Positions 44,801 through 47,800 of a stretch of 48,763 nucleotides of DNA are shown here, in pieces (position 1 is the first letter of the stretch; the number at the start of each line of letters is the position of its first letter). Position numbers: made by a program. The DNA comes from Escherichia phage 2B8, in sequence record NC_049952.1; one strand, 5' to 3'.

Positions 44801-47800
44801 TGACATGAGCGCCGCCACCCACGCACAGCAACCTGCGCTGTTTACAGCCATGCTGAAACAGTTTCGGGTTGACCTCACCGGGTTTAACGCGCAGTGCCAT
44901 GGTGGCAGTGCTGCAAATGTGCCGTGGATTTGTGGTGACACGACGTATTACTGGAAAAATACATACGCTACCCAGTACGACACCGTGTACGGCGGGTATA
45001 AAAACAGGGAGAGTGAGGGCGTTTATTTTGTGCCCTTCATGACAGACGGTAACGGTTTGTGGTGACACGACGTATTACTGGAAAAATACATACGCTACCC
45101 AGTACGACACCGTGTACGGCGGGTATAAAAACAGGGAGAGTGAGGGCGTTTATTTTGTGCCCTTCATGACAGACGGTAACGGTGTCAATACCGCCACTAA
45201 CGCGCCGGCAGAAGATCCGGATATTCCGGCATCAGGATATTACGGTGCGGCATCGAGAACGAATGGAAACCAGGTATCATCAAACCGCCCGACACATTTC
45301 AGTTCATGGGCGCGCAGGAGCATTATTCCGGATCGTATGGCAACCGCTATTCTGAACGCAGCCGGGCGCACCTCAGCCTTCATCAGTGGTAAGGCACCGG
45401 AAATCAAACCCTCGCCCGGCGGCGATACGCCATCGGGTCCGTCTGTAGATACGTCGGTTCGCACAATCTCCCTGCTGCCGACAGCCGGAGAGGCTGCTGC
45501 GCAGGGCTGGACCATTAAGGACGGCGGAATTCAGTTGTCGGGTGGTGTATTTAAGATCGCCAAGCAGAGCAACAAATCCTGGTCCCTGACGCATCCGGTG
45601 GATGATGCAATTACCCTGCTGACACAGGGCGGCAGACTGACCTGCAAGTTCCGCCTGTCAGGCGCACTGACCAACAATCAGTTCGGGCTGGGGATTTATC
45701 TGTATACGGATGCGCCCGTTCCTGATGGTGTGGCGATGACGGGTACCGGTAATCCGTTCCTGATGTCGTACTTCACTCAGACCACTGACGGCAGACTGAA
45801 TCTGATGCACCACAAGGCTGCCGGAAACACGAAGCTGGGGGAGTTCGGCGATTACGGTAACGACTGGCAGACGCTGGAGCTGGTGTTCACCGCCGGCAGT
45901 GCCACGGCTACTCCGAAACTGAATGGAGTGGCAGGTTCGGCATTCCAGGTTATAAAAGACAGTCTGACACCGGGACTGAATGCGCTGACGCTGACGGATG
46001 TTACAAAAAGTGCAGCGTATGGCGTTGAGATAGAAAGTCTGGTGCTGGAGATAAATGCACCGGCAGCATAATAAAAAAGGGCCAGCGCCCACTCTGAAGG
46101 ACGCTGGCTAAAACGGGTAGATGTACTTCACATGATACTTATACTTGGCAGTACATTTTCTGACAGACAGTGACGGGTGTTGTCAAGATATTGTGTCATT
46201 TATAACCTGAATCAGGGGGGCGGAATGTTATCTGGCATTTTTAGCAGAGCCTGAATGCCATAATCACGGCTCCCGGAGTTGGCCGTCAGTGGGTGACACT
46301 GGCGGCTTTTTTGTTTTTCTTTACTTTCATTTTCTGTCGGCGGTGACGGAGACATACATCAGATGGAAAAAATCACAACAGGTGTGTCATACACCACGTC
46401 AGCGGTGGGGACGGGATACTGGTTACTGCAGCTGCTGGACAAAGTCTCTCCGTCCCAGTGGGTGGCAATAGGTGTGCTGGGGAGTCTGCTGTTTGGCCTG
46501 CTGACGTATCTGACAAACCTTTATTTCAAGATTAAAGAAGATAAGCGTAAGGCTGCGAGAGGTGAATAATGTCGCCGTCATTACGCAAGGCTGTTGCAGC
46601 TGCTATTGGTGGTGGGGCTGTTGCCATAGCGTCTGTGCTCATCACTGGTCCAGATGGTAACGATGGTCTGGAAGGTGTCAGCTACATACCATACAAAGAT
46701 ATCGTTGGCGTATGGACTGTATGTCACGGACATACCGGAAAAGACATCATGCCCGGTAAAACGTATACCGAAGCAGAATGCAAAGCCCTCCTGAATAAAG
46801 ACCTTGCCACGGTCGCCGGACAAATTAACCCGTACATCAACGTCGATATACCGGAAACAACGCGCGGCGCTCTTTACTCGTTCGTTTACAACGTGGGCGC
46901 TGGCAATTTCAGAACATCGACGCTTCTTCGCAAAATAAACCAGGGCGATATCAAAGGCGCATGTGATCAGCTACGGCGCTGGACATACGCTGGCGGTAAG
47001 CAATGGAAAGGGCTGATGACTCGCCGTGAGATTGAGCGTGAAGTCTGTTTGTGGGGGCAACAATGAGCATGATTTGCTTTTTCATGGCAGCGTTGCTCGC
47101 ATTCAATGGCAACGATGCGTGGCCGTGGTTTCTGGCCGTTGGAGTGTTGATGTCATGAGTCGGTTAACCGCGATTATCTCCGCTCTGATTATCTGCATCA
47201 TCGTCTGCCTGTCATGGGCTGTTAATCATTACCGTGATAACGCCATCGCCTACAAAGAGCAGCGTGATAAAAAAGTCAGTGAGCTGAAGCAGGCGACCGC
47301 CACCATTACTGACATGCAGCAACGCCAGCGTGCTGCTGATGTACTCGATGCTAAATACACGAAGGAGTTGGCTGATGCGAAAGCTGAAAATGATGCTCTT
47401 CGGCGCAAGCTTGATAATGGTGGTCGGGTGCTCGTCAAAGGAAAATGCTCTGTGCCATCCTCAGCCGAAACCTCCAGCGCCTCCGGCATGGGCAATGATG
47501 CCACCGTCGAACTCTCTCCAGTTGCTGGACGAAACGTTCTCGGTATCCGGGACGGAATTATCCGTGACCAAACAGCACTGAGAACGCTTCAGGAGTACAT
47601 CAGGACGCAATGCCTGAAATAATTTTTTTGCAAATCACAAAGTCAATTTAATGAGCCTCGCGATGCGGGGCTTTTTTATGTCCGCAGTAAACGCGCATCT
47701 CACGCGCATATTAACGAGAGCCTTTCAGTAAGCGAGCCTGAGAAATGCCGTTATAGGTGGCGACCTCTCTCGGGCGGCTTTTCTGTGAGACAGGCTCACT

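Follow-up and report, generated by a model that had tools for sequence, protein, structure and literature searches.

The NanS-p proteins of Stx and other lambdoid prophages, as represented by NanS-p of 933W, gp84 of phi24B and PDB entry 6YP6, combine a DUF1737, a SASA and a DUF6645 domain, and their genes occupy the position between the antiterminator gene Q and the holin and endolysin genes. The chromosomal NanS of E. coli (YjhS, PDB 3PT5) has a homologous catalytic domain, but is devoid of the N-terminal DUF1737 and the C-terminal DUF6645. The catalytic residues of NanS are Ser19 and His301 (PMC9063846), and DUF1737 is a capsid-decorating domain according to a 2026 cryo-EM preprint on phi24B. 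With regard to phage genome assembly, SPAdes leaves an artificial terminal overlap of 127 bp on circular phage contigs (PMC5923482, PMC8104045, PMC12007190), and in one of these reports 'terminal repeats of 127 bp' were taken off before the genome was 'reopened' (PMC8104045).

Here we analysed the sequence record of Escherichia phage 2B8 (NC_049952.1), and the whole stretch of 48,763 nucleotides is referred to as the window. It represents a complete lambdoid phage genome with the lambda gene order (Nu1, A, portal ... J, int, immunity, O/P, Q, lysis), and it is mosaic, with a coverage by phage 434 that attains 74 % at best, over the right arm. In this genome a NanS-p-type esterase gene is split by a tandem duplication of 127 bp, which very probably is an artefact of assembly or finishing that the phage DNA itself does not contain.

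The nanS-p gene as written and with one unit removed

The features of the locus are as follows, all in window coordinates.

41932-42555, + strand: lambda-type antiterminator gene Q (PF03589), upstream of the block holding nanS-p
44094-46071, + strand: nanS-p-type esterase gene as written, 1978 bp; 1851 bp and 616 aa when one unit is subtracted
44094-45065, + strand: ORF1, 323 aa, with DUF1737, the N-terminal part of the esterase and Ser73 (GQSN, codon at 44310), and without the catalytic His
44929-45055, + strand: unit copy 1, nanS-p codons 279-321, codon phase 1 at its start
45056-45182, + strand: unit copy 2, identical to copy 1; the novel junction is 45055/45056
45112-46071, + strand: ORF2, 319 aa, GTG start, with His359 (codon at 45295) and the C-terminal DUF6645
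46363-47066, + strand: phage 21-type holin S gene (46363-46569) and lysozyme-family endolysin gene (46569-47066), directly downstream of nanS-p

The ORF calls agreed with the original prediction, according to which a first frame stops at 45065 after the peptide FMTDGNGLW and a second one, from 45112, repeats the same peptide in the +1 frame. ORF and domain searches likewise bore out that a NanS-p-type esterase gene is split because 127 is not a multiple of 3. The +1 frame is open from 45043 on. Neither a Shine-Dalgarno sequence upstream of the GTG at 45112 nor a slippery motif for frameshifting at the break between ORF1 and ORF2 was found, and since the frame is open only from 45043, rescue of ORF2 by re-initiation or programmed frameshifting was rejected.

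Deletion of one unit, which had been proposed as a check, regained a single continuous ORF of 616 aa. The repaired protein contains DUF1737 (PF08410, E = 2e-15, aa 4-49), SASA (PF03629, E = 3e-12, best Pfam stretch aa 66-262) and DUF6645 (PF20350, E = 7e-19, aa 467-577), the same three domains as the NanS-p proteins of lambdoid prophages; unlike NanS, it thus has both terminal domains. Its aa 60-379 matched the structure of E. coli NanS (PDB 3PT5, E = 6e-120) and aa 422-613 that of the NanS-p C-terminal domain (PDB 6YP6, E = 1e-29). Ser73, the nucleophile within GQSN, and His359 align with Ser19 and His301 of NanS, respectively. These two residues flank the repeat on opposite sides, and as the record is written they are found in different ORFs. 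In length the repaired protein (616 aa) is shorter than Stx2a-phage NanS-p subtypes of 643-645 aa listed in Table 2 of PMC10462455.

The gene also shares the Q-to-holin/endolysin position with nanS-p of lambdoid prophages: it lies where nanS-p is commonly found, after Q and before the lysis genes, as judged by the holin and endolysin genes that adjoin it downstream, with Rz after them, and hence in the part of the lambdoid late region where members of this family are located. It differs from nanS-p of Stx prophages in being split as written and in having no stx genes between Q and nanS-p; tRNA genes were not found anywhere in the window. On all sequence-level features of the NanS-p family, the repaired gene is an ordinary member, with the phage 434 allele as the one most alike, and 9-O-acetyl sialic acid esterase activity is the function predicted for its product from the family.

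This phage 434 gene, CPT_434_71 ('SASA family carbohydrate esterase', OL657226.1, 43456-45306), was the closest phage record, with 96.7 % nucleotide identity in a gap-free alignment of 1851 bp. In both phages nanS-p is flanked by the same genes, encoding a membrane protein, a DUF3927 protein, a pinholin and a SAR endolysin. Phage 434, however, has one copy of the unit and an intact gene for 616 aa, whereas the window has two copies. Another difference lies upstream: the block of membrane-protein, DUF3927 and nanS-p genes is preceded by a Q82-like antiterminator in phage 434 and by the lambda-type Q (PF03589) in the window, so that 41932-46362 represents a mosaic joint between this Q and the phage 434 block.

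The repeat unit and its junction

Only one tandem array was detected in the window by TRF, at 44929-45183 (period 127, 2.0 copies, 100 % matches, 0 indels, score 510). Direct string comparison showed that 44929-45055 equals 45056-45182 base for base, and the two adjacent, identical 127-bp copies predicted at 44929-45182 were thereby recovered by both methods. A perfect repeat of this length is far beyond chance expectation. String and k-mer scans revealed no further occurrence of the unit elsewhere in the window; apart from the array, the k-mer scan gave only two short dispersed exact matches of at least 20 nt, with offsets of 845 and 1445. A dispersed direct repeat at 21059-21185 and 21904-22030 (89 % identical, 845 bp apart) was also assigned a length of '127 nt' by the repeat tool. 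It is imperfect and non-tandem, and its similarity decays at both ends; the equal length is coincidental, and this repeat is unrelated to the one in nanS-p.

The unit opens with TTTGTGGTGACACG and closes with GACGGTAACGG, and at the novel junction 45055/45056 the sequence reads ...GACGGTAACGG followed directly by TTTGTGGTGACAC... The match between the copies does not extend leftward beyond the 127 bp, and it extends rightward by 1 nt (T). Microhomology at the breakpoints is usual, yet not obligatory, for genuine tandem duplications; here the breakpoints have this single T in common, and no short repeat or homopolymer was found at them. A homology of 1 nt fits the arbitrary boundary of a k-mer, and an assembly artefact needs no microhomology.

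To look for the duplication elsewhere, we used a 50-mer centred on the novel junction, such that every 28-mer seed crosses it. This probe matched none of 5,426 complete E. coli genomes and none of 50,697 phage records, whereas a control 50-mer from the interior of the unit was found at 2,956 places in 718 of the complete E. coli genomes. Junction probes of 24-36 nt gave no matches in IMG/VR, in the GTDB representative genomes or in the JGI metagenomes. Occurrence in independent assemblies or isolates, which would speak for a genuine duplication, was therefore seen in none of the five collections. This absence shows that the duplication is private, but it should be underlined that absence alone does not separate an artefact from a recent event.

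The relatives of the gene gave a consistent picture. Every one of the best matches, from phages and from E. coli, covered 1851 bp, i.e. 1978 minus 127, and the repaired gene aligned without gaps to 10 of 11 fetched homologues over 1844-1851 bp, with 93-97 % identity. As to the suggested comparison with intact homologues in related prophages, each of the 10 fetched loci in which the unit was detected had a single match to it (100 % identical in 8). Furthermore, the gene adjoining an identical holin encoded an intact 616-aa protein in nine of ten genomic places. Exact-protein look-ups for another assembly of the phage, with ORF1, ORF2, the neighbouring membrane protein (two starts) and the endolysin, returned no record; the exact holin protein is on record, but it is too widespread to mark one phage. 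An allele identical to this nanS-p was found neither in the complete E. coli genomes nor in the phage records (best about 97 %), and the source strain is therefore absent from these two sets.

Disruptions of nanS-p do exist in finished genomes, in the form of IS insertions (ISEc20, IS3, IS66) inside or beside the gene. In one further locus (L007, CP027351.1, 2986-4836) nanS-p is split into 180 + 415 aa in the called genes; this split does not stem from an indel, because the nucleotide alignment to the repaired gene is gap-free.

The same data bear on whether the site could be prone to slippage, phase-variable or subject to programmed frameshifting, such that the copy number of the unit would toggle nanS-p expression. 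Perfect in-frame internal tandem duplications were indeed present in 4 of 120 representative homologues (P0001, P0002, P0053 and P0064), but these lie at four different positions and have periods of 255-300 nt, and none of the 2,956 genomic places of the unit carries the junction seen in the window. Moreover, the breakpoints are without a short repeat or homopolymer, ORF2 has no ribosome-binding site and a +1 frame that opens only at 45043, and units of 127 bp are not known as motifs of phase variation or recoding. Only P0002 was traced to DNA. It derives from a 7.5-kb draft E. coli contig (L013, BDHX01000150.1, GCA_003113535.1) in which four perfect tandem duplications, each of about 277-300 bp, occur apart from one another, a mark of artefact:

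1854-2406, 2769-3318, 4180-4754 and 5929-6522 of the contig: duplications in TerB, nanS-p (twice) and a lysozyme gene

These inflate nanS-p to a 'protein' of 709 aa, and the pattern is that of faulty assembly in a prophage region with several copies, not of biology. P0001, P0053 and P0064 have in-frame duplications of 85-100 aa; a look-up of the source of P0053 found nothing. The duplications in all four proteins are likely mis-assemblies that are now in protein databases. Since the one traceable duplicated homologue sits on an artefact-rich contig in which different genes are hit, we rejected these duplications as evidence for a slippage hot spot, a reading that we consider exceedingly improbable. 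The original prediction had left three readings unranked, and among these the slippage-prone site finds no support; an assembly artefact is favoured and a recent inactivating duplication disfavoured, as set out below.

Genome ends and origin of the duplication

The two termini of the record divide a single cos site between them:

1-5, + strand: last 5 nt of the cos overhang (GACCT); base 1 of the window matches base 8 in the records of lambda and 434
48757-48763, + strand: first 7 nt of the cos overhang (GGGCGGT); together with 1-5, exactly one copy of cosN

The window starts with GACCTCGCGGG... and ends with ...GTTACGGGGCGGT, while the lambda and 434 records start with GGGCGGCGACCT followed by CGCGGG and end with ...GTTACG. 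When the 3' end of the window (...GTTACG GGGCGGT) is joined to its 5' end (GACCT CGCGGG...), one lambda-type cos overhang of 12 nt is obtained, split 7/5. Base 1 of the window aligned to base 8 of lambda, 434, O276, Perceval and every other cos-terminated reference compared. It follows from the split cosN and from this alignment that the record is circularly permuted, i.e. a circle cut open inside cos, the ends of which are not the physical ends of a sequenced molecule. Nor were the ends eroded independently of each other, because such erosion would not sum to exactly 12 nt. The cohesive end deduced for the window, GGGCGGTGACCT, deviates by one base from that of lambda and 434. Among the 40 related records listed, none was opened at the same base, 7 nt inside cos, which was sought as a sign of a shared pipeline or reference.

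With regard to the remaining large ORFs, Nu1 (181 aa), A (641 aa), B (533 aa) and a J-like ORF (1137 aa) were found, all of which look full length in comparison with the ORF lengths of lambda. The one gene that is broken is therefore also the one that holds the only repeat of k-mer length.

The largest k that SPAdes uses is 127. A de Bruijn graph assembler with this final k would turn a circular or concatemeric phage genome into a linear contig that begins and ends with the same 127 bp. In the present case the original contig would by chance have been broken inside nanS-p, at 45055/45056, and would then have been circularised and opened anew near cos with the overlap left untrimmed. The two terminal 127-mers would thereby have come to lie side by side within the genome as a perfect head-to-tail duplication, with a shift of frame in the gene concerned, and the junction 45055/45056 would be the join between the two ends of the original contig. 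The real genome would accordingly comprise 48,636 bp and encode an intact NanS-p-type esterase of 616 aa. We infer the assembler used, its k and the order of the finishing steps, including the rotation.

Three observations that this explanation calls for are present: the period is 127, the copies are 100 % identical, and the record was treated as a circle and re-opened. The likeness to the overlap that SPAdes leaves on circular contigs extends to the exact length of 127 bp, to the perfect identity and to the circularised and re-opened phage genome. There is one difference, in that the SPAdes overlap is normally found at the contig ends and is trimmed, whereas the copy in the window is internal, in agreement with a rotation carried out before any trimming. 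Because a real duplication could take almost any length, we estimate that the length favours an artefact by about two orders of magnitude. It should be noted, however, that some pipelines, e.g. Unicycler, trim such overlaps automatically.

A very recent, real tandem duplication, arising by unequal or illegitimate recombination or by replication slippage and inactivating nanS-p in this isolate, has to be weighed against this. The given sequence does, after all, hold the 127-bp duplication; the perfect identity of the copies suits a recent event, which would be just as perfect and as private as an artefact and could measure 127 bp by coincidence. Furthermore, nanS-p is an accessory gene that in other genomes is disrupted by IS elements or represented by a split ORF, so that a phage with a real knock-out would be viable, and since the break separates Ser73 from His359, a real event would be predicted to abolish activity. 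Yet the length of the repeat is exactly the k-mer size of an assembler, the breakpoints share only 1 nt, the junction was found in no other collection, including the 2,956 genomic places of the unit, the record bears the signature of a circular rotation, and no sequence sign specific to a real event was seen. The duplication thus displays the testable properties of an untrimmed overlap, and it lacks two properties of genuine duplications, namely breakpoint microhomology and independent occurrence. Taken together, these points make a genuine duplication unlikely. If it were genuine, ORF1 would consist of the capsid-binding DUF1737 domain and a catalytically dead, partial esterase, while ORF2 would probably be untranslated.

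Other cargo and consequences

Between the tail-fibre genes and int, the window contains genes resembling those for type III secretion effectors (22041-22730, 24462-25052 and 25560-26450). The matches in this region were to NleG (PF06416, E = 5e-44), to an IpaB/EvcA family (PF03278, E = 2e-33) and to an OspG-type kinase domain (PF22303, E = 2e-10), the latter two of which we take to resemble IpgB/EspM-type and NleH-type effectors. These effector-like genes indicate that the phage, which is lambdoid, effector-carrying and stx-negative, probably originates from an attaching-and-effacing Escherichia host (EPEC/EHEC or E. albertii). Two Rfam elements exceeded the gathering score: IS009 (RF02111, 221 bits) lies at 23737-23935 (+ strand), among the effector-like genes, and the lambda cIII thermoregulator element (RF01804, 88 bits) lies at 33762-33820 (- strand).

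Should the duplication be real, which would imply an effector-carrying lambdoid phage without NanS-p activity that still makes the DUF1737 module on a dead half-esterase, an outcome we regard as quite unlikely, it would offer a natural separation of the capsid-decorating role from the enzymatic one, or else add to the ordinary cases in which an accessory prophage gene has decayed into a pseudogene. With the duplication read as an untrimmed overlap, the main value of the finding is in quality control. Both the length of the record (48,763 bp, where 48,636 bp is likely) and its annotation, with two truncated CDSs instead of one NanS-p-type esterase of 616 aa, are probably wrong. As a rule for screening, an untrimmed overlap should be presumed, unless reads speak against it, wherever a re-opened genome contains in its interior a perfect tandem duplication with the period of a common assembler k (55, 77, 99, 127 or 141). 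For the NanS-p family, the consequence would be that the two ORF fragments enter protein databases as false truncated members.
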